Of a stretch of 63,289 bases of DNA, positions 47,522 through 63,289 are shown piece by piece. The notes under the pieces are model-generated. The model ran no database searches and was not told the origin of the DNA. It saw only the letters and a list, made by a program, of their open reading frames with translations. The number at the start of each line of letters is the position of its first letter. Position 1 is the first letter of the stretch. A program made the translations under genes and the position numbers. Origin of the DNA: Leptospirales bacterium. Its GTDB lineage: Bacteria; Spirochaetota; Leptospiria; Turneriellales; JAOUFE01. The stretch lies in assembly GCA_040326155.1 (NCBI GenBank), contig JBEQLE010000017.1, forward strand, positions 1 to 63,289. The letters run 5' to 3'.

Positions 47522-47654
47522 GGAGTCTTTATGTTTTGGAGCCGGTATAATCATTACAATTCTCATAGAAAGAATCTATGCGCTCTGTAAAGTTTTTTTA
47601 TGTATAACCAAGAAAAAATTAAGTTTTAAAAGGGGGCAAAGAATTTTTTTCTTT

Positions 47655-47703
47655 TTAGTACACAAAAAAATCCTTTGGTTTTTTTGTGCAGCTTCGTTCG
47701 ATT
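47655..47703 (+). repeat. ~112-bp two-hairpin repeat, partial copy 3 (hairpin 1 only)
   Basis: TTAGTACACAAAAAAATCC..GGTTTTTTTGTGCAGCTTCGTTCGAT. Confidence 0.8.
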
Positions 47704-47776
47704 TGACAGCGTCTTCGGATTTTGGTTGAAAAAGGCTTGTCACCTCATCTATTATTTCTTTTTCTTCTGAATACAC

Positions 47777-47849
<73 letters not shown>

Positions 47850-47858
47850 ACTTCTTCT

Positions 47859-48079
47859 TTAGTCCACAAAAAAATCCTGCGGCTTTTTTGTGCTGCTTCA
47901 TTCGATTACAGTTTAAAGTTTTTTTCGGAAAAAAAGCGTCGTTTTTTTCCGACCGTTCCATGGTATTACTAGTTCACAAAAAAATCCTGCGGCATTTTTG
48001 TGCCGCTTCGTTCGATTATAGTTTAAAGTTTTTTTGCAGCCAAAAAGCGTGGTTTTTGGCTGCTTGCTCCGTGGTATTG
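47859..48079 (+). repeat. ~112-bp two-hairpin repeat, tandem copies 4 (47859-47969) and 5 (47970-48079)
   Basis: Direct tandem units that differ mainly in the hairpin-2 stem. Confidence 0.88.
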
Positions 48080-48090
48080 TTCAGTTCATT

Positions 48091-48380
48091 AAAAGGTATT
48101 TAATTAAAAAGTCAGAGATACTTCTGATGTAATTTGCTCGCTCTGAGCTTGCATCGCTTTAAACTCTACATCAAAGTTACCCATGGTTTGCTGGATTCTG
48201 TTCATGGATGGTTGAACTTCTTTTGGTGGTATGCTTTCAACAAGGCCTTCAGCCTCCATTTTATCCATAGTTGATGTTAATTCGATTTCCATTGATTCCA
48301 TTCTCCCTTTAAGTTATTCTTGTATAGAGGCATTGGATCAGAATATTCTTTCACGATCTTTAAGCTACCAGAAGTTCTGT
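48091..48380. repeat. 290-bp direct repeat, copy A
   Basis: Colinear with 51557-51846, scattered substitutions. Confidence 0.92.
48104..48301 (-). CDS. Small acidic hypothetical protein (paralog of 51570-51767)
   Basis: 65 aa, frame conserved in both copies, AAGGGAG RBS. Confidence 0.65.
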   Translation of the reverse strand: MESMEIELTSTMDKMEAEGLVESIPPKEVQPSMNRIQQTMGNFDVEFKAMQAQSEQITSEVSLTF

Positions 48381-48467
48381 TAATAATAAAACTTGACATT
48401 TTGTTCATGTTTAATATTTTATAATGGATATACTGATTTTAGGCTCATATTTTTCCAGGAGGATTCA

Positions 48468-49499
48468 ATGACTACAAAAACTAAATCCCCCATAGAAGCC
48501 CTTTACCTGCGCCTCAAAAATGAAGTCGGCTTATCGAAAATCTTTATAAAAGCAAAAATACTCCCCGAATGGTGGGATGATGAAATCGCCGATAATCAAA
48601 CGGGTTATGCCGAGGCGGTGGGTTATATCGCAAAACATACCGGGATTATTTTTGATTCCCTCATGGATGTAAACTATCCGATTACCTTTCCAAATATCGC
48701 TACAAGGTTTTATAAATCAAATGAGTTATCAGAAGCAGATATTGACCTTGCAAAAAAAATTGCGATAGGCGTTGCAGATTTGATCGCATCAGCTATAAAA
48801 AAACCATATCTACCTATTCCAAAGAATTATATAGAAATTAGAGAATCTGTATTAAAAAGTGAACATTCTGTTTTTTTTCAATCTCTATTAAACTGGTGTT
48901 GGTCACATGGAATCGCGGTGATCTCGATCAGGAATTTTCCAAAGGGTGCAAAAAAAATGAAGGCGATGATTTCATTTACCAAAGAAAATCCTGTCATTGT
49001 TCTTTGTGATGGTCACCAGTATAACGCTTGGCTGCTTTTTCACTTAGTGCATGAAATAGGTCATCTTGCTTTGGGTCATGTCGAAGTTGGGCGTGAACTC
49101 ATAGATACAGATATAAAAAATCCTTTGCATGAATATGTGATAGAACAAAATAACAATAATACACTCCTGATGCAAGAAGAAAAAGAAGCAACACTATTCG
49201 GTACCGGGATCATAACCGGCGATCCCGATATGGTTTACCAATCTAATTCTCACCTATCCTCAAAACAATTGGCTGAGCGCGCTATAAAAATTGCCAAAGA
49301 ACAGCTCACCGACCCTGGCTTTATTGCCTTGAATTATGCCTGGCACAAAAATTTCATCCCTGTTGGAATGGGGGCACTTCGAATTATAGAAACCGATCCC
49401 GATGCGCATGGTTTAATTAAAAAAACATTCTTACAAAATATTGATACTGACCGATTGCCAGATGAATCTCTTTCTTATATTCAGCGAATTATAGGATAG
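48468..49499 (+). CDS. ImmA/IrrE-like metallo-endopeptidase domain protein
   Basis: 'FHLVHEIGHLALGH' (HExxH) plus downstream 'EKEA'; RBS GGAGG before ATG 48468. Confidence 0.75.
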   Translation: MTTKTKSPIEALYLRLKNEVGLSKIFIKAKILPEWWDDEIADNQTGYAEAVGYIAKHTGIIFDSLMDVNYPITFPNIATRFYKSNELSEADIDLAKKIAIGVADLIASAIKKPYLPIPKNYIEIRESVLKSEHSVFFQSLLNWCWSHGIAVISIRNFPKGAKKMKAMISFTKENPVIVLCDGHQYNAWLLFHLVHEIGHLALGHVEVGRELIDTDIKNPLHEYVIEQNNNNTLLMQEEKEATLFGTGIITGDPDMVYQSNSHLSSKQLAERAIKIAKEQLTDPGFIALNYAWHKNFIPVGMGALRIIETDPDAHGLIKKTFLQNIDTDRLPDESLSYIQRIIG

Positions 49500-49840
49500 A
49501 TGGTTGGAGTACTTTTGATTGCTCTGATTTTAATATCATAACCGGAGATAAAAGATGTCTTGCAGAACTGGCCAATGCCCAACTGCCGGATGATTTTGTT
49601 ACACATCACAAAGGGCGAGTCATTTGTTTTGAACAAATCATTTTAACGATCTTTCAAACAAACAACGAACAGAATATATTTAAAAAAATTCATGAAAATA
49701 GACATTGTGATAAAACCATGGAATATATATTTAACAACTCCATATTGGTAGCAGAAAATATTTCAGGGGGTTTACAATCTTACATAAAAAGTTTACAAAA
49801 TGACGCAAACCCCTATCTTTCAAACAAGGCAATACTTTAA
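49500..49840 (+). pseudogene. Internally deleted, frameshifted partner gene (PIN-like)
   Basis: ATG directly after the upstream stop gives 'MVGVLLI' then an early stop; another frame gives ~105 aa 'IITGDKRCLAEL...GRVICFEQII...GLQSYI' with no start codon near its 5' end. Confidence 0.6.
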
Positions 49841-49859
49841 ACATCACAACACAGAAATT

Positions 49860-50516
49860 CTATTTCCTCACCAGCTTATAAATAACTTCTTTCAACCCGC
49901 TCAACCCTCGGTCTCGAAACTGGGGATACTCATTTAGTATATCTTTCGTGTCGATTATTTCTACATCGAAATCATTTTCATATAACGAATCAACCTCTTT
50001 GGAGTGGACGGCAAACGGAGGCCCGCTCATTTCACTCTGGTTATACTCTATAGATACAAGAAGAATTGGCGTGCCCGGTAGAACCAGTTCCCCCATATGT
50101 TTAGCATAGCTAACCCTCATCTCCGGGGGCATGGCAATTAAAGAAGCCCTGTCATAAACCGCGTGTATAGGTTCCATCATGTCAGAACTCAAAGAGTAAT
50201 AATCACCGCATATTAGAGAGAGCTCTTTACAGTTAAAATAATTCATCCCTTCGCTATTATGCTCTAAGGCCTGCAAATTATTCTCTTCAAAAAAAGAGTT
50301 CACAGCAATTTCACTAATCTCAATACCCGTGACAGCAAACCCCTTTTCCAGAAACCACAAAAGATCAAGACTCTTTCCGCACAAAGGAACAAACACCCGT
50401 TGCCCTGGTTTCAAACCCATCGAACTCCAGAAAGTTTGTAAGTGCAAATTAATCTCAGACTGATGAAAACCCGTTTGACCCTTTTCCCATCTCTCCTTCC
50501 AAAACTTTATATCCAT
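49860..50516 (-). CDS. tpm: Thiopurine S-methyltransferase
   Basis: 'FWKERW...GFHQ', 'RVFVPLCGKSLD', 'YDRASLIA', 'GPPF'. Confidence 0.92.
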   Translation of the reverse strand: MDIKFWKERWEKGQTGFHQSEINLHLQTFWSSMGLKPGQRVFVPLCGKSLDLLWFLEKGFAVTGIEISEIAVNSFFEENNLQALEHNSEGMNYFNCKELSLICGDYYSLSSDMMEPIHAVYDRASLIAMPPEMRVSYAKHMGELVLPGTPILLVSIEYNQSEMSGPPFAVHSKEVDSLYENDFDVEIIDTKDILNEYPQFRDRGLSGLKEVIYKLVRK

Positions 50517-50518
50517 AA

Positions 50519-51265
50519 CTACCTCGGTGGCTCCGCGTTCATGAGCCTTAAATAATCTTTTTGAGTTTCAATTACCGCTCGACCAATATATTTCATATGC
50601 TCGTTATCATTTGTATGTGCTGCCTCAAGAGACGCAATGTAATCGGAACGTAGAACAGGCGATATGAGAGCAATATTATAACCCTCCTGCAAAAGTACAA
50701 GGTTCAATAGCAACCGACCGACCCTGCCATTACCGTCTATAAAAGGATGAATAAAAACAAAATCCAGGTGGGCTTTGGCGGCAGCAATCACCGGATGCAA
50801 ATTTTTTCGGTTGTCCCGAATAGCAGGAATTAAATTTTTCATTAAATCCTGAATTTTTTCAGGCAGTGGCAAAGGGTAGTGGGAACCGGAAATGAAAACT
50901 TTTTGCTGTCGGTATCTGCCCGCATTGGATTCGTCAATTTTTACATAAAAAATTCGATGTAGATCTAAAATATCTTTTTCTGTAATATCAACCTTCTGTG
51001 CAAGATCAGACATCCAATCAAATGCTTCGGCATGCCCCAGGGCCTCAATATGATCATGAAGCGGTTTGCCGCCAATGGTCAAGCCATCTTCGATGACAAC
51101 CTTGGTTTCAGATTCAGTCAAGCAGTTGCCTTCAATCGCGTTGCTAGACCACGTCAGTCCAATTTTATAATACTGTTTCAGGGAAAGTATAGTCTCCCTA
51201 TCTAACGGCCGAAATTCGTTAATTTGTTTTTGCAGCTCATCAATTTTTTGAAGAATGTCTTTCAT
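50519..51265 (-). CDS. Fic family protein (class II, N-terminal inhibitory helix)
   Basis: 'HPFIDGNGRVGR' and 'SNAIEGN'. Confidence 0.93.
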   Translation of the reverse strand: MKDILQKIDELQKQINEFRPLDRETILSLKQYYKIGLTWSSNAIEGNCLTESETKVVIEDGLTIGGKPLHDHIEALGHAEAFDWMSDLAQKVDITEKDILDLHRIFYVKIDESNAGRYRQQKVFISGSHYPLPLPEKIQDLMKNLIPAIRDNRKNLHPVIAAAKAHLDFVFIHPFIDGNGRVGRLLLNLVLLQEGYNIALISPVLRSDYIASLEAAHTNDNEHMKYIGRAVIETQKDYLRLMNAEPPR

Positions 51266-51556: not shown

Positions 51557-51846
51557 AAAAGGTATTTAATCAAAAAGTCAGATATACTTCGGATGCAATT
51601 TGCTCGCTCTGAGCTTGCATCGCTTTAAATTCTACATCAAAGTTAGCCATGGTTTGCTGGATTCTGTTCATGGATGCTTGAACTTCTTCTGGTGGTATGC
51701 TTTCAACAAGGCCTTCAGCCTCCATTTCATCCATCGTTGATGTTAATTCGATTTCCATTGATTCCATTCTCCCTTTAAGTTATTCTTGTATAGAGGCATC
51801 GGATCAGAATATTCTTTCACAAGTTTTAAGCTACCAGAAGTTCTGT
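51557..51846. repeat. 290-bp direct repeat, copy B
   Basis: Colinear with 48091-48380. Confidence 0.92.
51570..51767 (-). CDS. Small acidic hypothetical protein
   Basis: 65 aa; overlaps the end of the upstream gene; paralog at 48104-48301. Confidence 0.65.
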   Translation of the reverse strand: MESMEIELTSTMDEMEAEGLVESIPPEEVQASMNRIQQTMANFDVEFKAMQAQSEQIASEVYLTF

Positions 51847-52928
51847 CAATCACAAAATATCGATCAGGATAACGAGCAAACAGTAGAGCATCCTGATTAT
51901 CCATACCCGTAGCATCTAATATTAGCATTGCACTTGATTTCTCATCTCTATAATCGACTGATCTTGAATATTCGGCAATCCAAATAAATTTAGGCAATTC
52001 GGTTTCAAGAATTGATTTTTGAAAATTGATGGTTATTCCACTTTGGTTCTTAACCCATCTTTTAAAAGACCGACTTGAAGTTAAAAATCGCCGTACCAAC
52101 CATTTCTCTTTTTCATAACCTGGCAGACCTAAAGTTTCATCAGTAAAAAATGTTTCCGAAAGTTTCTTTGCAGTCGGAGCCTCTAAATACATTTTAGGAT
52201 ACATGGGTACAATTACAGATATAATTTTACCTTCATGATATTTAGGGTCAGCATATGAAGCCAGAGGTTCGTATAGAGATAAGCTTTGGTAAGGACCTTT
52301 GATAATAGGTTGATTTTAATAAGGAGTGTATTTTGTTTGGTAAAACCAGCCCATATTCTGGATATTTAGTGCCAAAATACTCCGTTATTGCCCAAATCGA
52401 AGTCTCTGCACAAGAAATCATTTTAGTATCCTGCGTAGAATATGGGAACCCATGCACTTCTAAAGGTATGCCAAATAGGGTACTTTTATGATGCGATAAG
52501 CAACAAACAAAATTATATGTTTGTAATACGTTTGGTGAGATAATACTACGACCCAGAAAGTTACCATTGAGTGGCCGCAATACAAAAAAACCAACATAGC
52601 TAAATTGAACTAATTCTTGCTTTTCTTGATCGAATAAATCGTCCTTTGATATTTCCGTTGTAAACAAAGAAACCCTGATTGTATCTCTCTTGGTTTGTTT
52701 ATGAGCAGAAGAGTAGTAATTATAATAACTATCTCTAAATAACTTGTCTACATACGGAAATTCAATAACCAGGCAAGTTGAATCTTTCAGTTCTTTAAGG
52801 AGATTTTCCAATTTTTGATCATCGCTTATGGATGGCAAAGAAAACCATTTACTTAAATGTTTTTTATAATTGGATAAAAGATATTTTACAGTTGTGATGC
52901 CTGAAGTAACCATAGATTATAAAGACAT
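51743..52928 (-). pseudogene. Disrupted large gene, possible papain/C39-like Cys protease
   Basis: Two ORFs in different frames joined near 52290; 'QD....SCAETSIW' motif; in-frame TAA at codon 4 after the RBS-preceded ATG 52928. Confidence 0.6.
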
Positions 52929-52990: not shown

Positions 52991-53122
52991 TCACCCCACA
53001 CTCGCCACAGCATCAGCCAACTTCACCTGTGTCGCCTGCGCTTCGGAAATTCGCTCTTTCAATCCATCGCAAATCGCCATCAGCTCATCGACCTTTTGTA
53101 CAATTCATTTTTGTTCAATGAG
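52991..53122 (-). pseudogene. hsdS C-terminal tail repeat, copy 1
   Basis: 'LIEQK*IVQKVDELMAICDGLKERISEAQATQVKLADAVASVG*'. Confidence 0.85.
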
Positions 53123-53223
53123 CTCACCACAAGTCCTTGGTTGCTGAAGATCGTTGCATATTTAATTTAGATTACAATAAAAAGTTCTTGATCACAGAAT
53201 GTGACATAATAAACTCATGAAAC

Positions 53224-53919
53224 ATGAAAGAGTCAGACTTATATGTGGTTCTGGAGTCGTACTATCGTGATCAGGGATTTGAGGTCAAGGGCGAGGTCTG
53301 TGGCTGTGACCTGGTCGCCCTGAAAAAAAAGAAAGGTGATGAACAACTGATCATCATTGAACTGAAAAAATCATTCAATGTAAAACTTTTGTATCAGGCC
53401 GTTCGGCGCCTGGCGATAACAGACCAGGTCTATGTGGCTTTTTTGAAACCCGAAGCCCGTCAAAAAATGTCATTTTGGACTATGGTCAAAAGCTTGTGCA
53501 GACGATTACATATTGGGGCCATTATCATTGAGGCAAAAAATATTCGATTTTTGGCCGAGCCGTCGGACTTTCAGGGCAGAAAATCTTCTGCAATGAAACA
53601 CAAACTGATGAAAGAATTCATGGGGCGTGAGGTCTCCGAAAACATCGGGGGGGTTAACCGTCAGAAAATTCAGACAGCCTATCTTGAAAGTGCCATTTAT
53701 ATTGCCGCCTTACTGAATGGACATGAAACCCTTTCGGCCAAAGCACTGCAGGAAATGGGCGCCCCTGAAAACACATACGCGATATTATACAAAAATCATT
53801 ACGGCTGGTTTTCCCGAAAAGCCAAGGGACTGTATTCCTTGAAAAAAGGAACACTAACAAAAATACAAAAAGAATACTCTACAATATGGGAGCACTACAG
53901 ATTAAAGGTGGATGGTTAA
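53224..53919 (+). CDS. DUF2161 family putative PD-(D/E)XK phosphodiesterase
   Basis: 'KESDLY.......QGFEVKGEV.GCDLVA...IIELK', 'TAY', 'NHYGWF'. Confidence 0.85.
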   Translation: MKESDLYVVLESYYRDQGFEVKGEVCGCDLVALKKKKGDEQLIIIELKKSFNVKLLYQAVRRLAITDQVYVAFLKPEARQKMSFWTMVKSLCRRLHIGAIIIEAKNIRFLAEPSDFQGRKSSAMKHKLMKEFMGREVSENIGGVNRQKIQTAYLESAIYIAALLNGHETLSAKALQEMGAPENTYAILYKNHYGWFSRKAKGLYSLKKGTLTKIQKEYSTIWEHYRLKVDG

Positions 53920-53965
53920 GAGAAGGAGGGGGCCAGAGAATTTGTTGTACATCACCATATACTTC

Positions 53966-54313
53966 TCAATATTCGACAATAAGCTGCAAGTCACAATCTG
54001 CACAAATTTTAGCATTAAACCCATTGTCAAAACCACAAGCAGGGCACTTCCCTTGTTCTTCAAGCTCTTTAGATATTTGAAATTCTGGATGAAGTTCCAT
54101 ATAGTAGTTTTCAATGACCAGAAGACCACGTTTGTCTTGTTCTTCAGGAACGGATAAAGTATACTTTAAGGCACAAGATCCATTACTACAACCAGGGGCC
54201 AGGTTCACTTGATGTGGAATATCTTCGACAGTTAGCATATCACCTATTTCTCGAATAGTCTTCAGACTATCTTCTTTAATCACAACCCATTTTATCTTGA
54301 CATTTTCGTTCAT
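53966..54313 (-). CDS. DUF2007-like small protein with C-terminal zinc ribbon
   Basis: 'CPACG......CADC'; ATG 54313 preferred because the upstream part is repeat-like. Confidence 0.6.
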   Translation of the reverse strand: MNENVKIKWVVIKEDSLKTIREIGDMLTVEDIPHQVNLAPGCSNGSCALKYTLSVPEEQDKRGLLVIENYYMELHPEFQISKELEEQGKCPACGFDNGFNAKICADCDLQLIVEY

Positions 54314-54450
54314 TGTATTAATGTTCATTTTTCTTGACGCCAAGAAAAACGAACCAAAAAGAAGCGCCAGACCGGCCACAATCCTCCTGATTGTGGGGGT
54401 CTGGGTTTAAGAGCGCAAACCTCATGTTTGCTTAAGATCGTCATTCGTAT

Positions 54451-54562
54451 TTACACTCGGTTGCTGAGCGCAGTCGAAGTAACAGCATCAGCCAACTTCA
54501 CCTGCGTCGCCTGCGCTTCGGAAATTTGTTCTTTCAAGACATCGCAGATTGCTATGAGTTCA
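54451..54562 (-). pseudogene. hsdS C-terminal tail repeat, copy 2, with REP-like insertion
   Basis: 'ELIAICDVLKEQISEAQATQVKLADAV' followed by inserted TTCGACTGCGCTCAGCAAC. Confidence 0.85.
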
Positions 54563-54848
54563 ATTTCAAAACCATCAGGATAGGGCAGCTTGTAAACTAA
54601 TTTTGAGATTTAGCGCTTGCTGTGTTCGGTGTGTTGGGCAGGTCTCATGGGTAAATTTTGCCATTTTTTGGCTATGGTGCGCTTCTGGAGTTGGGGGAAA
54701 TTTTATCATTGACTTCTCGTCATTTCAAAACGCTATTGTATATAGTAAACCCGCCAGGCCTCTGCTGCAAACCCAAATGTGGCGGGTCTTTCTTTTTTAT
54801 AGGACTGTGAATGTCCTTTATAACAATTCGGTGTTCACGGGAAGTTCG

Positions 54849-55754
54849 ATGGCAGACAAAAAGAAAAAAGAACCAAAATATTTCAGGCAAAAGTTTTTGC
54901 TGGCTTTGCTTCAGAAATTTGGTGGAAAATTACACAAGACCGACCTTCAGAAATATCTTTTTTTATACAATCAAGAATTTACAGATAAACCTCACTATTA
55001 TTTTCTGCCCTATAAATTTGGTCCTTTTTCTTTTCAGGCATACGCCGATGTACGCAGGTTGAATGATCTGGGCCATCTTGCCAACGAAGACCATATTGAA
55101 AAAGTAGATACTTATGATTATACTGCCTCTTTGCATGAGAAAGATCAAAAAGCACTTATTCCTTTTTTTGAAAAGTACTGCCTACTAAAAGGCAATGCTT
55201 TGATAAAATATATTTATGAACGTTATCCCTACTATTCGATTAAAAGTGAAATTAAAGAACGCATTCTTGGCGAAAAGTCATCAGGTATGATGCCAAAAGA
55301 AAGCCCGGCAAAAACAAACGCCGAATTTTTCACCATGGGTTATGAAGGTATAACCGTTGATCAGTATTTGAATAATATTGTTCAACAAGAAATCTCTGCC
55401 GTGATCGATGTACGAAAAAACCCGATCAGCATGAAGTATGGTTTTTCTAAAACACAGTTAAGTAAAATGCTTGGCAATATTGGCGTAAACTACCAACATA
55501 TGCCCGACCTGGGCATTGAGTCTGCTTCGAGACAAGACCTTTCTTCTTTTGGAAAATATCAACAATTGTTTGATGAGTATGAACAATCGACTTTAAATTA
55601 TCAACACAAGGCGATAAATGCCATTGCTGAAAGTTATTATGAAAATAAAAGGGTGATGTTAACCTGCTTTGAAAAAGATTATAACTATTGCCACCGCTCC
55701 AGGGTTAGTAATGCGATTGAAAAAAAACTGGGCATTGAAACAAAGCATCTATGA
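54849..55754 (+). CDS. DUF488 family protein with N-terminal SocA-like helical domain
   Basis: 'FTMGYEG', 'IDVRKNPISMKYGFSK', 'H..DLGI', 'LTCFEKD...CHR'; N-terminal 'LQKYLFL...PYKFGPFS'. Confidence 0.85.
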   Translation: MADKKKKEPKYFRQKFLLALLQKFGGKLHKTDLQKYLFLYNQEFTDKPHYYFLPYKFGPFSFQAYADVRRLNDLGHLANEDHIEKVDTYDYTASLHEKDQKALIPFFEKYCLLKGNALIKYIYERYPYYSIKSEIKERILGEKSSGMMPKESPAKTNAEFFTMGYEGITVDQYLNNIVQQEISAVIDVRKNPISMKYGFSKTQLSKMLGNIGVNYQHMPDLGIESASRQDLSSFGKYQQLFDEYEQSTLNYQHKAINAIAESYYENKRVMLTCFEKDYNYCHRSRVSNAIEKKLGIETKHL

Positions 55755-55963
55755 TATTAGAAAACGCTAAGATATTAATTCTTGTTAAAACTTACCCGGT
55801 TCTTTCCAAAAAATACTCGGATGAATTTATGGAAAAAGATATTTATCTGTTTCTGGGAACCACCCGTCAATACCACGGCTGGGCTAAAAATCCATTTGTA
55901 ATTATTGGTGTATTTTATCCACCTAAAAGCGAAAGCGTGTCAGATCTTTTTTCGCAGGAATAA
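55751..55963 (+). pseudogene. DUF488-partner gene with in-frame internal deletion
   Basis: N-terminal 'ILVKTYPVLSKKY' joined directly to C-terminal 'DEF..KDIYLFLGTT...NPFVIIGVFYPP'; recalled homologs are several times longer. Confidence 0.65.
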
Positions 55964-56207
55964 TCACCATAACGAAACAACATGAATATGTTGATATAGT
56001 GCATTACATTGAAAAATGTGATATATTATTGCCAGTGTATTGCATTATTATAGAATATGCGATACATGACTTGGTTTCTAAAGAAAACCGTTATAATTTT
56101 AAAAGTAGCATACACCGTTTTAGCGGCCTTATACTTTTGTGCAGCAAAAGGGGAAAAGTCTTTCCCCTGGTTCCGACCGCCACGGCGTTCTCCACCACCC
56201 CATACGG

Positions 56208-56292
56208 TTTATTCTGGTTATTGAATTTTTGTTGGGGTTATTACCATCGATTCCGCTATGCGATAATTTTAAAGAATCTTTTTGCTTGTCGA
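56208..56292 (-). repeat. Second copy of the RAYT-tail-like segment
   Basis: Exact 27-mer ATTTTAAAGAATCTTTTTGCTTGTCGA and 16-mer TTTGTTGGGGTTATTA shared with 51465-51535. Confidence 0.7.
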
Positions 56293-56367
56293 AAGATCTT
56301 CTGTTTAAGAACATGATTGAAGTCTGTAAAAAATAACCAAGCAATGTTTAAAACAAAGGAAAGGAAA

Positions 56368-56733
56368 ATGGGAAACACAGAAGAAACCGATTTATTAAAA
56401 GCTAAAGATGAAATTAAAGATATCTTAAAACAGAACGCTTCGAAAAGAGCGATGATACCCTATTCAGACTTAGTTGCTAACCTACAATCGATGCGGCTTG
56501 AAGCGCACGATACTCGTTTATTCAGATTGCTGGGTGATATCTCGGTTGAGGAAAATGAAGAAGGGCGTGGCATGCTTAGTGTTATTGTGGTTCATAAACA
56601 CGGAGATGTGCAACCTGGTCCCGGCTTTTTTGAGCTGGCAAAACAACTGGGAAGAGATACTTCAGATATTTTGCAGTGTTGGGTGGATGAATTGAAAAAG
56701 GTTCATTACTATTGGAGTACGCTGGAAAAGTAA
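56368..56733 (+). CDS. Hypothetical protein (possible winged helix)
   Basis: 'IPYSDLV', 'LLGDIS..E...GRGMLSVIVVHK...PGPGFF.LA'; AAGGAAAGG RBS. Confidence 0.7.
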   Translation: MGNTEETDLLKAKDEIKDILKQNASKRAMIPYSDLVANLQSMRLEAHDTRLFRLLGDISVEENEEGRGMLSVIVVHKHGDVQPGPGFFELAKQLGRDTSDILQCWVDELKKVHYYWSTLEK

Positions 56734-56790
56734 ATTATCTTTATTCGCTGTCAATTATTTTAGAGTATTGTCAGCTGACTTTGCTTTGTG

Positions 56791-56875
56791 TCAACTATCG
56801 AGATGCACTGTCGCTTGGCCATTCATCAGCGTCGGCAAAAGCCAGTAGCGCTGTGTAGTAAGCGATTGATTTCCC
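56791..56875 (-). pseudogene. hsdS C-terminal tail of a second family
   Basis: 'NQSLTTQRYWLLPTLMNGQATV' matches the 'LRD.LLP.LM.G' HsdS end. Confidence 0.7.
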
Positions 56876-56946
56876 TGTTTGTCATGTTAAGAAAAACGCA
56901 TTTCGTTAACATGTGGTCATGACCGTGTTAACAAAACTTCCTTTTT

Positions 56947-57194
56947 TACTCAGACGTTTTTGGTATAAATAGGTTAAATAAGGGTTCATTGATATAAAAG
57001 CTATGTTTACCAAGCTTTTCTTTTTTTAATAAGCCATCGGAAGCAAGTTCGTCAAGGTCACAGATTGTGACCTTGAAAAACTTGACTCAGCATCAGTTAA
57101 TTGAAACATAAAGTCTTCTGGAAACCTTTTTATATTACGCTTCACCTGTTCATTTAAACGTGTTCGGAGTTTACGTGTTGGATTACCAGGCAAT
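56947..57194 (-). pseudogene. Chimeric remnant: ORF6N fragment + Fic-type C-terminal tail
   Basis: 'RLNEQVKRNIKRFPEDFMFQLT...RSQSVTL' followed in another frame by 'LDELASDGLLKKEKLGKHSFYINEPLFNL'. Confidence 0.7.
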
Positions 57195-57395
57195 TCTCTG
57201 ATCTTTTAGAATTTCTTCTTTTGTTTTCTCGTAGTTAGATATTTTTTTTAGAAGTCTTTTATGACCATTTTTTGTTTGGTACAAAATGCCATTATCAAAC
57301 TGAATAAAATTATAGTTGTGTCGTTTAGCCCTTTTTCTGGCTTTTGATGCCGCGCTTTCAGGGGCTTTAATTAATTGTTGTGTTTCTTTACTCAT
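57183..57395 (-). CDS. Small basic hypothetical protein
   Basis: 70-aa ORF starting MSKETQQ; no family recognised with confidence. Confidence 0.45.
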   Translation of the reverse strand: MSKETQQLIKAPESAASKARKRAKRHNYNFIQFDNGILYQTKNGHKRLLKKISNYEKTKEEILKDQRIAW

Positions 57396-57604
57396 AGCAA
57401 CTACTCTAATTATCAATAGACAAAAAACCAACCTGACAGCAAGTATATTTTTCAAAAGCTTTGTACACATCATCTTGGCTCAAAGTCAGAATTGAGGGTA
57501 GAGGTCATTGCAAAAGACTAGCGGTTATAATTGTAATTGGATGACGCCGTCGAAGAAGTTCTTCATGCGAATTTCTATGGGGGGTGTGGTATTTTATCCC
57601 CCAC

Positions 57605-57820
57605 CTACAGCTCCCCCCGAAACGCCCGTTGGCTCAACGACCCATACAGATTTTCCAGCTCGCTCAAGCTCTCATTGTATCTACCTTTCATCGCTTCGAT
57701 TTTTTCAGCAACGGCGGCGAATTTGTTTTGTAGGGGGAGGGGTGGAACTTCTATTTTATGCTCTAGTAGTTTAGTTTTTGAAATATTTGGCATAGAACCA
57801 GCTGCACCGCCAACCATCAT
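57605..57820 (-). pseudogene. hsdS: hsdS of a third family, internally deleted
   Basis: Coupled start 'MMVG' joined to 'GSMPNISK..L....I.VPPLPLQNKFA...LYGSLSQRAFRGEL'. Confidence 0.85.
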
Positions 57821-58635
57821 TTCTTTCCGCCCATTTTTTTCACGGCATGATCGGCATACAAAAGTTTCATCTGCTGAATCGCGATTAGATTTAATTTCTG
57901 TAATCGTTCACTTTGTTTTATACCGTCATGTATAAAATGTGCGTTTAAATTTTCGAGGTTGGAAAGGCAGACAAGTTGCGAGACATCTGCATGGTCGCGG
58001 ATATTTCCTTTGTCTTTGGGGTGTTCCTCTCTCCATTGGCGCGCGGTTTTACCAAACAGGGCCATGTTGAGAACATCAGCTTCTGATGCGTATATATTAC
58101 TTATCTGGATTTTGGATAATGCAGATGGAACCAGGTTGTTCTTAATGGCGTCTGTGTGAATGCGGTAATTGATTTTGGCAAGGTTTCTGCGAATGTCCCA
58201 GCCGAGTTGTTTGCGTTCACCTTCCTTGAGACGTTGAAATTCCTTAATGAGGTAGAGTTTAAATTCAACGGAAATCCACGACGCGAACTCAAATGCAATA
58301 TCTTTATGCGCGTAGGTCCCGCCATAACGACCCGCCTTTGATTTCAAACCTATAGCGCCTGTCTTTTTGATCCACTGCTTAGGAGTAAGCGTAAAGCTGT
58401 TTAAACCAGCTTGTTTTTTAAACCCGTCGAATTCCACGGGTTTAAAATCGGGGTTGTTTAATTGCTCCCATATTCCGAGAAATTCTATTGTATTTCGATT
58501 TCGGAGCCAGTTCCGAATCAGGTCATCCGTTCGCTCCGCATTTTTATATTTCGCAATATCAGTTATACAAATATAATCCCCATCATTTTGAGTGTATACA
58601 ACGACGTCTTTATCTAATACGGTTATTTTAGCCAT
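57817..58635 (-). CDS. KilA-N domain-containing protein
   Basis: 'DYICITDIAK', 'NWLRNRNTIEFLGIWE', 'GRYGGTYAHKDIAFEFASWIS'. Confidence 0.92.
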   Translation of the reverse strand: MAKITVLDKDVVVYTQNDGDYICITDIAKYKNAERTDDLIRNWLRNRNTIEFLGIWEQLNNPDFKPVEFDGFKKQAGLNSFTLTPKQWIKKTGAIGLKSKAGRYGGTYAHKDIAFEFASWISVEFKLYLIKEFQRLKEGERKQLGWDIRRNLAKINYRIHTDAIKNNLVPSALSKIQISNIYASEADVLNMALFGKTARQWREEHPKDKGNIRDHADVSQLVCLSNLENLNAHFIHDGIKQSERLQKLNLIAIQQMKLLYADHAVKKMGGKK

Positions 58636-58659
58636 CCCAACAATCCCCTACTCATTTTC

Positions 58660-58740
58660 TCACCTCCGTGCCCTTTGCGCATCGGCAATTCGCTCTTTCA
58701 AGGCGTCGCAGATCGGCACCAGCGAATCGACCTATTGCAA
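58660..58740 (-). pseudogene. hsdS C-terminal tail repeat, diverged copy 3
   Basis: 'Q*VDSLVPICDALKERIADAQ'. Confidence 0.75.
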
Positions 58741-58751
58741 AAGACTAGCGA

Positions 58752-59030
58752 TTAGTGAGATTTACCCATTGGTGGATATTTTATTATAGCGCCTGCACGA
58801 ATTTTTTTACGTACTTCCGTATCAAAATGTCCGTTGTTTATGTTAGAAACACGAACCCAATACTTTTCATTTGATAGGGTTATTGCTTCTGGTTCGACAT
58901 CTTCTATTTTGTAGTTTAATAATTGTGTTGAAGTCATACGTAATTAAAATAACTAAATCTTAATACTTTGGCATAAATTAATGAACAACATAACCTGGTT
59001 CTGAGGTTCTTTTAAAATAAATTTATCCAT
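58752..59030 (-). pseudogene. Probable disrupted cargo gene of unknown family
   Basis: ATG just after the hsdR stop, early stops, then a 61-aa open tail. Confidence 0.3.
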
Positions 59031-59043
59031 TGTAAATTCTACC

Positions 59044-59655
59044 CTATCCCGTCATCCCCGTAACAAACACTTCTACAAATTCTTTCATCTTCGCGAGAAT
59101 TTTTTCACCGATGGAGGCTGCCTCTAATACACTCGGACGATTATCGAGGCATTTGTAAATGTCTTCGCGAAGGGGTTCTTGTTCACTATAGATATACGCG
59201 TCGATCAATGATTGAAATTGTTTCCGGTCGAGTTTTTCGTCTTCGCAGATTTTGCCCAGGGCCAGAACTTTTTGGTCTTGCCAGTATTTTTCAAACTTAT
59301 CTGCGATGGCATCGGTATTATCTATGTGCGGAAGGTGTTCTTCAATAAATTTTTCGATGAGTTCACGTTTACTGCGTAAGTCGATATCACCGGCAAGCAT
59401 ATCCATAATCGCCTTTTTCTGTTTTACGGTTTCTTCTTCATCTGCGTTTTTGAGTTTTCCCAGTAATTTTAAAATATACACTCGGTCAATAACGTCGCGG
59501 TGAATAAGTTCGACCTCAAAATCAACATCGTCTAATATCGATGTTTTCTTTTTGGAATGATCGCTCTTTACTTTTTGCCGTAAGTCAAGATACTTTCCCT
59601 TGTAGTCTGAAAAGCTCTGCTCGTCCATGGGTAAGTCGTCCCAGGTGAAATCGGC
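59044..59655 (-). pseudogene. hsdR: Type I restriction subunit R C-terminal fragment (EcoR124_C-like)
   Basis: 'DFTWDDL.MDEQSFSDYKGKYLDL', 'DDVDFEVELIHRDVI...YIL.LL', 'LRSKRELIEKFI'; no helicase or nuclease part. Confidence 0.85.
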
Positions 59656-59897
59656 TCATTACCCGTTTTCGATTTCAATAAAAACAGACCGCGACCAGCC
59701 CTTTCAAAAATAGAACTCGAGTTATACTTTGTATCCTGGTAAAGCTGGGCGCCCATGGTCGCCGAAGGCGTTTGACCGTCGGTAATTAATATCCCTTTTT
59801 CCAGTGCCAACTCTGTAATTTCATTCGTATGCATCGCCCGGTTGTTCTCTTCTAAAATATACTTGGCGGCGTCTTTAAAGGTTCGAGTTGTTTTCAT
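59568..59897 (-). pseudogene. HARE-HTH (HB1/ASXL/restriction endonuclease wHTH) N-terminus running out of frame into the hsdR remnant
   Basis: 'TFKDAA..IL.....MH..EI...AL..G.....GQTP.ATM.AQLY...F...GRGLF.L'. Confidence 0.75.
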
Positions 59898-59913
59898 ATT
59901 ATGGGTTCCTTAT

Positions 59914-61152
59914 TTAGTGCTCTCGGAAGGCATCCTGAATTTTACGCATCGTGTTCGGGGTAGTCGGCAGGTTATTGTATTTGTTGTAAAATAAATAAAC
60001 AGATTCACTACAATGTAATGAAGTGTTTTGGGAATAAAATCGATGCTCACCTTTGTAAGTAGTGCTAGTATCTGGCTCATTCCAACCCGAACTAACAATA
60101 GCTAAAAACAATAAGTTATCGTACTTATACACTTCTTCTTCCAGTTTAGCAACAACATCTGCCATATTCCAGCCAAAGGTAGAATGAGGATATATAATCA
60201 GTATTGATTGTACATTTTTGGGAAGTTGTTTTTGTTTTTCTTTCATTTTTCTTTTTATACGATAAATTTCATTAACATCCCCAAGTGGTGAACTGAAAGA
60301 ACCTGTCCGTAATGAGTTCATTCTCATCCACTCTTCATATTCTTTTTCGCCATGCATTGACATGCCTATAGTGATCTCTTCATTATCAATACATTGAAAA
60401 ATTTCACTGGATTTTAATTTTTCTATTTTCTCTTCAAGCACCTTTATTATTTCATTCGTTGTATTTTCGGATAAGACTTTATTAAGACGACCTCCATAGT
60501 GCAATGGATAAACATCGAGGTTTCTCATAATAAAATCCATAATAGTGTCAGAAGGTTTCTGGGCTTCTTTTTGCTGATCGGCGACAGCCACTTCGGAAAT
60601 TTCGATGACAATCTCATCGTCGTTATCATTATTACGAAGACGCAAATCGGGTTTTTTCATTGTCCCTTCTATCTCAATTTCCGGTTCGATTGTAACATTA
60701 AAACCCGCCTTGATAAATCGGTGGGTATTACGAATTACCTCAAATTTTTCTTTTGCATTTGCAGGGTTTTTATACTCTATAAAAATATTAGTATCGTCAA
60801 TTTTTGAACGAATATTTTTGATCATTTCGCTGAACCAGATAAACCAATGCCTTGTCCATGCTGCTCTGTTGATGAGATACTGACTTAGTCGATGTTCGTT
60901 CTTCATCACTTCTATTGGAAATTCGCTTCCAAAAACATCTTCCATTACCTTAAAAGCATGTTTGATTTTACGTTTGTCGAGATCAGTATACTTGACACTC
61001 TCTTGTACTTCTTTGACGAGAGATACCCAACTGTATTTTTCTTGCAGGTATAGGAGTCTGCTTTCTTCGGTTTCACCTGGGAATAAATGCATAATCATAC
61101 CCATATTTATTTTGCTGCATAAATTGTCATACAGAAATTCATCATCCAACAC
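59914..61152 (-). CDS. Hypothetical protein with restriction-endonuclease-like motif
   Basis: 412-aa intact ORF; 'EP......KKPDLRL.......IVIEIS'. Confidence 0.55.
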   Translation of the reverse strand: MLDDEFLYDNLCSKINMGMIMHLFPGETEESRLLYLQEKYSWVSLVKEVQESVKYTDLDKRKIKHAFKVMEDVFGSEFPIEVMKNEHRLSQYLINRAAWTRHWFIWFSEMIKNIRSKIDDTNIFIEYKNPANAKEKFEVIRNTHRFIKAGFNVTIEPEIEIEGTMKKPDLRLRNNDNDDEIVIEISEVAVADQQKEAQKPSDTIMDFIMRNLDVYPLHYGGRLNKVLSENTTNEIIKVLEEKIEKLKSSEIFQCIDNEEITIGMSMHGEKEYEEWMRMNSLRTGSFSSPLGDVNEIYRIKRKMKEKQKQLPKNVQSILIIYPHSTFGWNMADVVAKLEEEVYKYDNLLFLAIVSSGWNEPDTSTTYKGEHRFYSQNTSLHCSESVYLFYNKYNNLPTTPNTMRKIQDAFREH

Positions 61153-61265
61153 CCAACCACAGCATCAGCCAACTTCACCTGCGTCGCCTGCACTTCGGAA
61201 ATTCGTTCTTTCAAGACATCGCAGATCGCCATGAGTTCATCGACTTTTTGGAAAATTCGTTTTTG
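61153..61265 (-). pseudogene. hsdS C-terminal tail repeat, copy 4
   Basis: 'QKRIFQKVDELMAICDVLKERISEVQATQVKLADAVVG'. Confidence 0.88.
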
Positions 61266-61325
61266 CAGTGTTGGGTGGATGAATTGAAAAAGGTTCATTA
61301 CTATTGGAGTACGGTGGATAAGTAG
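61261..61325 (+). repeat. 65-bp duplicate of the 3' end of gene 56368-56733
   Basis: 62/65 identical to 56669-56733 by eye, ending at the stop codon. Confidence 0.9.
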
Positions 61326-61374
61326 TCTATCCAGGCTATTAATATCCACGCTAGTATAGTGCATGCATAGAAGA

Positions 61375-62508
61375 TTAAACTAATAGTTCCGACGCTTTTC
61401 TGTATTTCAATTCACTTTTTGCCAGATTTAGCATTCTTTCAACATATTCAAAGCGATTTTTTTCAAACCAAATCCCGGTAATGCCAAGTTTTACTAAATA
61501 TTCATTACGTTCAACCAACTTCTTTTCATTTTCAGGTGCCTGCTCAATTGCAAAATGGTTTAAACGACCAACATCACCTATATCCTCCTGTATCGAGCGA
61601 AACACTTGAACTGTTCGATCATTATTCAAGCCGCAGCCTAAGAATAAAAGGCTACTGTTTTTATAATAATAGTCCAGTAATTTTGGAATAGGGAGCTTCA
61701 AGTCGACTATACCCATGCCATATGCATGGTCATATTGCTTTTTGCTGAAAATGCATTTCTCTGGCTCGCTTACACCACCATGCAACTTAATGATTGTAAC
61801 ACGATCACTGGCCAGCTTTTCCATTGCATTTAGACCATTGATAACCTGATAGGGCTTATCCTTGCCTGTCTCAAATGTTTGTTCTATCACCCTGTCATAA
61901 TTTGTAGTAATAACTGTATCAGTAAATAATTCAGCAATTAACCAATTTGCCTTTGCTTTTATTAATGCGCCAGATACACTAAAGACATCTATAATTTCTT
62001 GAGTAAAAACATTGCGGCCACGCGTGTTCTCAATTTCTTCAACAACTTCTTCATATTTACCTGATTCTAATAATGCTTCAACATGCTTTGGATCAAGCCC
62101 TGCCGTTCTGCCTTGTTGTTTTAAGTGCTCTTGCCAAGTAGGAAAATCGGCATCTTGCGATATACCGGCCCCAACAAAAGGGATAACAGTGCCGGAATCA
62201 ATTTTTTCTAACAATTGATCAAAACGGCTAAGGTTTCTACTAAACCAATGCTCATCACTAAATTTAATGTTAAAAAATGACTCATTTAGTGTTTTATGAC
62301 GTTGCTCTATTCTATACTCTTGATAAGCTTGAACATATGCAAGTCTATCACTGACATAAAAAACTTTACTAGCCTGCGCTAAACCGTCCAAGCCTGCTTC
62401 TATACGTATATTAGCACCTTCATCACTTTCAAGCCATTGATTAAAATCTAAATAATAATCATAAATATTATGACCGTCTTTTTCACACCATGTTTTTGAA
62501 GCATTCAT
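61375..62508 (-). CDS. SIR2-like domain protein
   Basis: 'PFVGAGIS....PTW', 'ITTNYD', 'IKLHG', 'LLFLGCGL.ND'. Confidence 0.88.
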   Translation of the reverse strand: MNASKTWCEKDGHNIYDYYLDFNQWLESDEGANIRIEAGLDGLAQASKVFYVSDRLAYVQAYQEYRIEQRHKTLNESFFNIKFSDEHWFSRNLSRFDQLLEKIDSGTVIPFVGAGISQDADFPTWQEHLKQQGRTAGLDPKHVEALLESGKYEEVVEEIENTRGRNVFTQEIIDVFSVSGALIKAKANWLIAELFTDTVITTNYDRVIEQTFETGKDKPYQVINGLNAMEKLASDRVTIIKLHGGVSEPEKCIFSKKQYDHAYGMGIVDLKLPIPKLLDYYYKNSSLLFLGCGLNNDRTVQVFRSIQEDIGDVGRLNHFAIEQAPENEKKLVERNEYLVKLGITGIWFEKNRFEYVERMLNLAKSELKYRKASELLV

Positions 62509-62592
62509 ATCTATTTTTATATATTCCTTTTACGTAACGGCTCCCCTAGGCATTAGTTAGGTTCAGCATCTCGATGTTCTCAAAGCACCACA

Positions 62593-63246
62593 TCAATATC
62601 CATGGGGGCAATATTGAAAATATAGAAACAGCCCGCCTATCAAGGATATTGATATAAGTAACAACCAATTCATCTTGTCGCTTTCAACACGTTTCCAAAT
62701 AGCGCTTTTATTTTCTTTTCGGAAATCTTTCAAATTGAAATCTGTTATATAAAGTGTTTTTGCAGCTTCTGATAAATAATCAGGCGTACCGGTAATCTTA
62801 TATAATAACTTTTTATATTCAATGACTTTCTTCTCAGTTCTAAAAGAAAAATATATACAAGCAAGTAAGGCAGCAGCAAGAAGTAAAAAGCCCGTAAATT
62901 TAAAAAATTCATGTAAACCCGGTTTTTCGAAATAAGTAGCAAAGCAACCCAGCGCCACAGTAATTAAAAAAGTAGTGAGCGCCGACCTTACATTGCTGTA
63001 ATGACGAATTTCATTACCTGCTTCTATGTATAGGGTTCTAATATTTTCTTCCATATTCATTTCTTCCTTTTTTGCTTTATCTATTTTAGTCGACAACTTA
63101 CCCTTCGTATCATTAGGAACTCTTGTTTTTTCTCCAGACTTTTCCCCAAAAAACCAATTCTTGGCTGTCAGCAATAATGATTTAGATTTCGCATATCCGG
63201 GTTTTAAGTAATTTATTATAACTGTAAATTTTTCACCCATATTCAC
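62593..63246 (-). CDS. Hypothetical membrane protein (about 3 TM helices)
   Basis: Intact ORF with three hydrophobic segments; GTG overlaps the hsdS-tail stop (GTGA), though a later start is possible. Confidence 0.6.
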   Translation of the reverse strand: MNMGEKFTVIINYLKPGYAKSKSLLLTAKNWFFGEKSGEKTRVPNDTKGKLSTKIDKAKKEEMNMEENIRTLYIEAGNEIRHYSNVRSALTTFLITVALGCFATYFEKPGLHEFFKFTGFLLLAAALLACIYFSFRTEKKVIEYKKLLYKITGTPDYLSEAAKTLYITDFNLKDFRKENKSAIWKRVESDKMNWLLLISISLIGGLFLYFQYCPHGY

Positions 63247-63289
63247 CGCACACTCGCCACAGCATCAGCCAACTTCACCTGCGTCGCCT
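63243..63289 (-). repeat. hsdS C-terminal tail repeat, copy 5 (cut by window end)
   Basis: 'ATQVKLADAVASVR*'; near-identical to copy 1. Confidence 0.85.

Follow-up and report, generated by a model that had tools for sequence, protein, structure and literature searches.

The structure reported here is a row of five partial copies of the 3' end of hsdS, the specificity gene of type I restriction-modification (R-M) systems, in a Leptospirales bacterium (GenBank assembly GCA_040326155.1, here G000; 4.26 Mb in 171 contigs). It lies toward one end of contig JBEQLE010000017.1 (C80), whose full 63,289 nt make up the window of this analysis. The closest described counterparts are Rhs loci, in which old units are displaced: in the accessible part of Jackson et al. 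2009 (PMC2935791), a single crossover with a circle shunts the old unit downstream. The orphan modules of contact-dependent growth inhibition (CDI) and MafB systems group with Rhs as close systems. As in Rhs C-terminal displacement, a live gene is followed here by co-oriented fragments of variable length derived from its own conserved part, and the same-clade limits and lack of an integrase set out in that part of PMC2935791 recur. Unlike in Rhs, where what is exchanged is the variable tip of the protein itself, the units here are separate downstream genes and the protein is unchanged; the last 43 codons of hsdS, which are conserved, serve as the anchor, and no tail extends past the hsdS stop codon. 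Rhs arrays are also the norm for their family, whereas hsdS tail arrays are very rare.

A second precedent comes from conjugation in E. coli, where part of the homology anchor was duplicated in 56 of 60 clones, over 109-950 bp in the 14 clones sequenced, an outcome attributed to cutting, trimming, recircularization and a single crossover (PMC3240628, accessible part). That system resembles ours in pairing a partial anchor duplication with one new junction, and joints in homology-facilitated illegitimate recombination (HFIR) use microhomologies of 3-10 bp; it differs in being a laboratory plasmid construct with a frequency of 10^-9 to 10^-10. Classic HFIR deletes rather than duplicates, and the accessible part of PMC3240628 describes no natural serial array. 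In cargo, the locus recalls PrrC and the defense genes embedded in type I R-M loci (Payne et al. 2024, 10.1101/2024.01.29.577857), through PDC-S22, PDC-M19 and SIR2; in the accessible portion of that text the strings 'recombination', 'hsdS' and 'truncat' occur 0 times, and neither tail scars nor a stacking route appears. The E. coli immigration control region is likewise an integrase-free variable island between fixed anchors that often holds a type IB hsdRMS operon, but it varies by replacement, the accessible part of PMC12707154 describes no tail scars, and virtually every genome has just one copy of its type IB tail.

Two further comparisons set the locus apart from dedicated recombination systems. 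hsdS shufflons and phase-variable type I loci hold silent hsdS copies with alternative target-recognition domains (TRDs); no TRD lies upstream of the first four tails here. An integron has IntI beside its array, which is lacking here, and its cassettes are mostly single-gene and co-oriented. An earlier reading of the window, made from sequence only, had likened the array to an integron with a single cargo gene per unit, a description that fails because the blocks are 1.5-4.2 kb long, hold several genes each and are mixed in orientation (three genes lie on the opposite strand). Our analysis suggests instead that the stack of hsdS tail scars is a new form of a known displacement-type mechanism. 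The locus bears on how integrase-free defense islands grow, since it would preserve a legible trace of four additive events. It also points to a route open to testing, in which a single crossover duplicates the anchor, and to candidate defense cargos in a 392-aa PD-(D/E)xK-fold family, an hsdS-linked SIR2 family and a membrane protein. Its weight is limited by the rarity of the pattern in the EcoAI hsdS family and by the precedents for the mechanism. No description of hsdS tail arrays was found in the literature searched at listing level, mostly outside subscription journals.

Five hsdS tails behind a live type I operon

The five co-oriented minus-strand tails reported by the sequence-only reading are real by both blastn and a PADLOC profile. 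Numbered from the distal end, copy 1 (c1, 52991-53122) is a scar holding the full 43-codon tail, interrupted by one TGA, the nonsense codon already recorded in it. Copy 2 (c2, 54482-54562) is a scar that begins ~35 nt inside the conserved region and lacks a stop codon; copy 3 (c3, ~58660-58750) is degenerate and truncated at both ends; and copy 4 (c4, ~61143-61265) is a scar that begins ~9 nt inside the terminal conserved region. Copy 5 (c5, 63243-63289), nearest the live gene, holds the last codons and stop of a live EcoAI-family hsdS and is cut by the contig end. By blastn, c1 matches c4 at 86.5% over 126 nt (E 3e-36), c2 at 87.7% over 81 nt, c5 at 95.7% over 47 nt (45/47 nt in common) and c3 at 82% over 62 nt; with matches reaching E 1e-36, the similarity is well above chance level. 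The tail peptide aligns to positions 546-584 of the 589-position PADLOC Specificity_I model PDLC03179 (E 1e-10), so its identification as the HsdS C-terminal end, the last ~40 positions of the model, holds, and the tails are direct repeats derived from coding sequence.

It had also been claimed that no TRD, intact hsd gene or integrase lies between the tails. This is correct, although debris of hsdS and hsdR there had been overlooked. A profile search found no Methylase_S/TRD domain anywhere on C80, and a TRD2 profile placed in register found nothing 5' of c1-c4, against 53 bits at the hsdS end of a second contig, C33. A PF00589 search for tyrosine integrases gave no match on C80 or C33; the four matches in G000 lie on C106, C12, C141 and C83.

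The live operon is found on C33, which ends inside hsdR-hsdM-hsdS. Its HsdS open frame runs for 546 codons to the contig end (70028-71666) and breaks off at the PxPP motif that starts the terminal conserved region; most family members have 42-46 residues after PxPP, and the tail supplies 43 codons. The gap between this hsdS and c5 is ~84 nt and unassembled, and no contig-end overlap links C33 and C80 at either end. In G001, a genome of the same family but another genus, rimK, tRNA-Ala(GGC) and a class I aldolase gene (fbaB, a name assigned from reading of the sequence) are adjacent and represent the empty site. In G000, rimK and tRNA-Ala lie on C80 and the aldolase (79% identical to that of G001) on C33, in matching orientation; rimK has different neighbors in the other three relatives examined. 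Because of the fit of the hsdS end and this rimK-tRNA-Ala-fbaB synteny, we place C33 beside the window. Copy 5 is therefore the end of the live hsdS and copies 1-4 are scars, in agreement with the earlier prediction of an intact hsdM-hsdS ending in copy 5.

HsdR on C33 scores 1109.9 bits with NF046051 (EcoAI/FtnUII) against a cut-off of 550, and the R-M-S order, the gene lengths and membership in a ~585-aa two-TRD hsdS family identify the operon as type IB (EcoAI family). The island spans ~22 kb between tRNA-Ala(GGC) (47777-47849, plus strand), its distal boundary, and fbaB, and is headed by this intact type IB hsdRMS. No second copy of the tRNA-Ala 3' end, that is, no att-type duplication, was found at the island; an integrase and a duplicated tRNA 3' end, the marks of a tRNA-targeted integrative island, are both missing.

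Junctions and ancestry of the scars

Measured from the first base of the conserved region, the four scars start at ~0, +9, +20-28 and +35 nt, and their ends vary too. All of them begin within its first ~35 nt and carry no TRD remnant; such tail-only scars are the expectation if homology defines the duplicated part. The 5' flanks of c3 and c4 are recognizable donor DNA joined at microhomologies or near-microhomologies of 5-9 nt: c4 is joined to the end of a 138-aa gene via 5-6 shared bases, and c3 to a segment resembling DNA on contig C131 via a 7-of-9 match. The c3 5' junction also overlaps a 17-nt exact repeat with a second copy at 57507-57523, a coincidence weakened by the dispersed exact repeats of at least 17 nt held in 61/197 genome windows.

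These junctions bear on the main rival explanation, in which whole hsdRMS-plus-cargo islands were added in tandem and redundant hsd genes were then deleted, leaving gene ends beside useful cargo. Such a history would account for the internal deletions in the island and the sizeable pieces of other type I systems left there, and for solitary orphan tails that precede cargo without a nearby live hsdS, as at loci L171 and L173 in other genomes. It would, however, require 4/4 deletion ends to lie no more than ~35 nt from the TRD/tail border, for which uniform ends over TRD2 plus tail give, as a rough estimate, ~0.16 each, and no EcoAI-type hsdM or TRD remnants were found in the island region. We regard this history as unlikely, if the one most deserving of attention among the rivals.

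The clustering of scar starts near one point, together with co-oriented repeats that punctuate a row of defense-like genes behind a live gene, would also suit a dedicated integron- or shufflon-like system, with a site-specific recombinase acting in trans to recognize the tail and to insert or excise cassettes. Yet scar starts and ends differ, no recombinase lies in the island (the PF00589 matches are all on other contigs), each block holds several genes and orientation is mixed, other sequences are duplicated in the same way, and other family loci are almost never scarred. We consider such a system the least probable of the explanations weighed here.

Over tail positions 35-85, c1, c2 and c4 are 82-92% alike, with c3 at 72-80%, and at positions 85-118 c1, c2 and c4 match c5 at 91-100%. 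Neither c1 nor c4 exceeds 69% with any of 153 family tails; they are closer to each other than to those tails, and the copies therefore come from one lineage. A shared lineage is also what would be expected had the hsdS end been amplified in local tandem, with later loss or replacement downstream, or had the tail been carried by a selfish nuclease gene, for which the PD-(D/E)xK-like nuclease behind c4 would be a candidate. The blocks share no genes beyond two short duplicated ends, however, and one block alone begins with a nuclease, which makes either version very improbable. The proposal that distal units are older and more decayed was rejected on tail-by-tail comparison: decay is not graded with distance, for c3 is the most degenerate copy and the most distal, c1, is nearly identical to c5.

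The fragmented assembly, which breaks within the tail repeat itself, invites the suspicion that cargo alleles of coexisting strains were stitched serially through that repeat. Four 77-nt contig-end overlaps suggest k = 77, though, whereas no two tails match exactly over more than 33 nt and no repeats of the region over more than 64 nt; nor are distinct 5' junctions and private mutations created by a misjoin through an intact repeat. An assembly chimera is accordingly a highly unlikely source of the array.

Tail scars in other genomes

Our family survey took 160 hsdS loci, the best 80 from each of two scans, and dropped seven with one profile match only; the remaining 153 have a terminal tail and 914 kb of downstream flank in total (at least 5 kb in 87 of them). 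One co-oriented downstream scar is present in 2/153, L041 (61 nt, 79%) and L147 (44 nt, 100%), and no locus of the 153 has two or more. In the 109 family loci that combine a full hsdS with 2 kb or more of flank, these two pieces are the only downstream duplicates of hsdS coding sequence, and both are tail-only. Weak candidates at L029 and L141 lie inside opposite-strand open reading frames (ORFs) and were judged to be chance matches.

The type IB tail occurs in 979/5426 E. coli genomes, at 980 places in total, and a more distant query found a single tail in 867/867. Profile searches matched the tail in 31/301 genomes of its own phylum, 23/351 of the phylum of genome G333 and 73/251 of the order of genome G336, and no genome in these searches but G000 held three or more clustered tails. 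The four-scar stack is an extreme case, not a family trait. At the DNA level, E. coli type IB alleles have no more than the final ~60 nt of the tail in common, and this is about where the scars of L041, L147 and contig C19 of G000 begin.

Twenty regions were taken for inspection, chosen mostly for short open frames, and several of these candidates proved to be frameshifted or contig-end hsdS genes. Twelve solitary orphan tails were examined: four had clear TRD remnants, four had short TRD remnants and four had none. The one at L172 is next to a transposase-like ORF, 11 kb behind an intact operon. At L171 (G690:C1, 6276-8159) a lone hsdS remnant, tail only, comes immediately before two paired genes that look like DarT-DarG, the gene behind the tail being presumably DarT-like.

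Within G000, C19 carries a further tail scar of 63 nt (2313-2375, L218) at the end of another R-M locus. That locus consists of hsdM, hsdS, a restriction-associated AAA ATPase gene and a 333-aa gene, and the window and C19 islands carry each other's hsdS ends. G000 has six hsdS genes with Methylase_S matches, on C19, C33, C83, C131 (two) and C152, an unusually rich type I set.

A model of serial additive insertion

We propose, with a probability of roughly 55%, that the array grew as same-lineage DNA was added, time after time, by a single crossover at the conserved tail, with microhomologies at the joints. We favor this model because the scars are tail-only, their flanks resemble donor DNA, the tails are of one lineage, and neither an integrase nor an att repeat is present. 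The donor would be the same locus of a close relative, contributing the conserved hsdS 3' region and that strain's downstream genes. Broken or trimmed, this DNA would be closed or joined at a short microhomology, and host RecA would then carry out one crossover at the conserved tail. The live hsdS would keep a complete end, the new block would land directly behind it, and the old block would be pushed downstream behind a partial tail copy. Other locally shared sequences, namely the 3' ends of the protease and 138-aa genes, may have served as anchors likewise, and later deletions would have eroded many of the captured genes. The sequence-only reading had already named the conserved hsdS end as an anchor for serial capture; this is still the best reading, but it is not specific to the tail, given three other direct-repeat scars (300, 71 and 17 nt).

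The cargo gives this model mixed support. Homologs of the SIR2-like protein occur in 19/153 family loci and in 18/153 lie within 150 nt of the hsdS stop, and the window's SIR2 gene, which belongs to what is the family's habitual first cargo, stands in second place without a tail ahead of it. The tail-only duplicates of L041 and L147 also speak for the model. SIR2 is the only habitual follower of hsdS among the three cargo families with readable neighbors: the expectation that cargo homologs sit behind an intact hsdS is borne out for it and not supported for the other two. Homologs of the KilA-N protein were found in 9/151 genomes, directly behind hsdS in 0/9; three of the nine lie between hsdM and hsdS and one more behind hsdM, by ORF reading. 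Protease homologs were found in 5/301 genomes of another phylum (L197-L201), all with a 61-71-aa partner; 0/5 lie directly behind hsdS and none has a tail.

These KilA-N and protease counts weigh against serial insertion at the tail, and so do several other observations. Tail DNA gave 0 matches in 40 relatives, and no insertion was caught. Deletion debris is plentiful in the island (the hsdR and hsdS remnants and the broken protease gene), and orphan tails can also stand singly before cargo where there is no array. Scars are near-absent elsewhere in the family, and the route therefore needs some lineage-specific factor. ComEC is present in G000, but also in 10/14 control genomes, and so says little.

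A bolder version of serial insertion, which we hold to be doubtful, makes the hsdS end, in this lineage, a reversible, integrase-free cassette joint from which tail-bounded blocks loop out as RecA circles and re-enter at the live hsdS. It is similarly speculative that re-entry, in the same or another cell, puts a defense block first in the hsd operon, and just as tentatively the resident restriction enzyme, by cutting incoming DNA, might supply the ends that close the circle.

Cargo blocks and debris

From hsdS outward, the first cargo is a membrane protein of 215-217 aa with hydrophobic segments (62593-63246, minus strand), which has no family match above cut-off. It occupies the newest position, and its start overlaps the hsdS stop, so that the tail meets the cargo start at c5 as had been described. 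Next comes the SIR2-like gene (61375-62508, minus strand), missed by the sequence-only reading, which matches PF13289 and, weakly, ThsA, LmuA and Dsr. The hsdS-linked SIR2 family reaches no NCBIfam cut-off and gives partial PADLOC matches only; its members stand first behind hsdS in L009, L019, L047, L092, L136 and others, some as forms of ~615 aa. Then, at 61261-61331 (plus strand), come the final 71 nt of another allele of the 138-aa gene, 93% identical to 56669-56739.

Behind c4 lies the gene for a 392-aa nuclease-like protein (59914-61092, minus strand), a description that a structure model and family search uphold. It probably starts at 61092, because homolog P0121 has 392 aa; the Atlas record begins at residue 21. 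This start is ~50-65 nt past the tail, which does not overlap the gene as had been described. The family comprises 415 relatives at E<=0.001, has no Pfam, PADLOC or NCBIfam match, and keeps D149 and E164 invariant. The model (pLDDT 94.7) finds its best structural match in AF1548 (Z 8.6, rmsd 3.3, 112 aligned residues) and many restriction-nuclease folds at Z 5-7.5, with no Foldseek match at E<=0.001; on this basis the protein is predicted to be PD-(D/E)xK-like. Searches for homologs gave 0 plasmid matches and 0/251 genomes. A HARE-HTH ORF (59568-59897, minus strand) overlaps an hsdR C-terminal fragment with an EcoR124_C domain (59044-59628, minus strand), debris of another type I system, and the segment 58735-59034 is 86% identical to DNA just downstream of hsdR on C131.

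The KilA-N gene (57817-58635, minus strand) matches PDC-S22 at E 1e-134. The tails had been described as directly heading unrelated cargo genes, and the tails are real, but c3 stops short of the tail end and so is not the native head of this gene. A remnant of a different hsdS type (57605-57820, minus strand) matches the C19 hsdS at 81% over 135 nt, and the overlap of its start with the stop codon of the KilA-N gene suggests an internal deletion. Small fragments lie between this remnant and the full allele of the 138-aa gene (56317-56733, plus strand), which has no assigned family and whose 3' end is the one duplicated at 61261-61331. Beyond it, on the strand opposite to the tails, are a DUF488 protein (PDC-M19A) and its truncated PDC-M19B partner (54852-55963, plus strand).

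The gene behind c2 had been called DUF2007-like, but no DUF2007 match was found; this zinc-ribbon-like protein of ~122-137 aa (53966-54379, minus strand) gives only weak zinc-ribbon matches, below cut-offs. A DUF2161 putative PD-(D/E)xK protein (53224-53919, plus strand) is encoded on the opposite strand. The supposed pair of Cys-protease-like genes behind c1 is in fact one broken gene for a ~500-aa protease-like protein, with an internal deletion and a frameshift, accompanied by a gene for a 65-aa partner (51570-52913, minus strand). For the protease no viral loci were found, and of two plasmid matches the one examined has no hsd gene annotated nearby. Farther out, Fic, TPMT-like and weak IrrE/M78-like genes (48393-51265) are bracketed by a 300-bp direct repeat: a second, 94% identical copy of the protease 3' end and 65-aa gene (51557-51856) lies at 48091-48390 (minus strand), a scar of the same form that does not derive from hsdS. 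A promoter scan was at chance level (38 vs 37.7). Beside tRNA-Ala, a REP- or MITE-like repeat of ~110 bp is present three times (47650-48080); dozens of other G000 contigs carry it as well.

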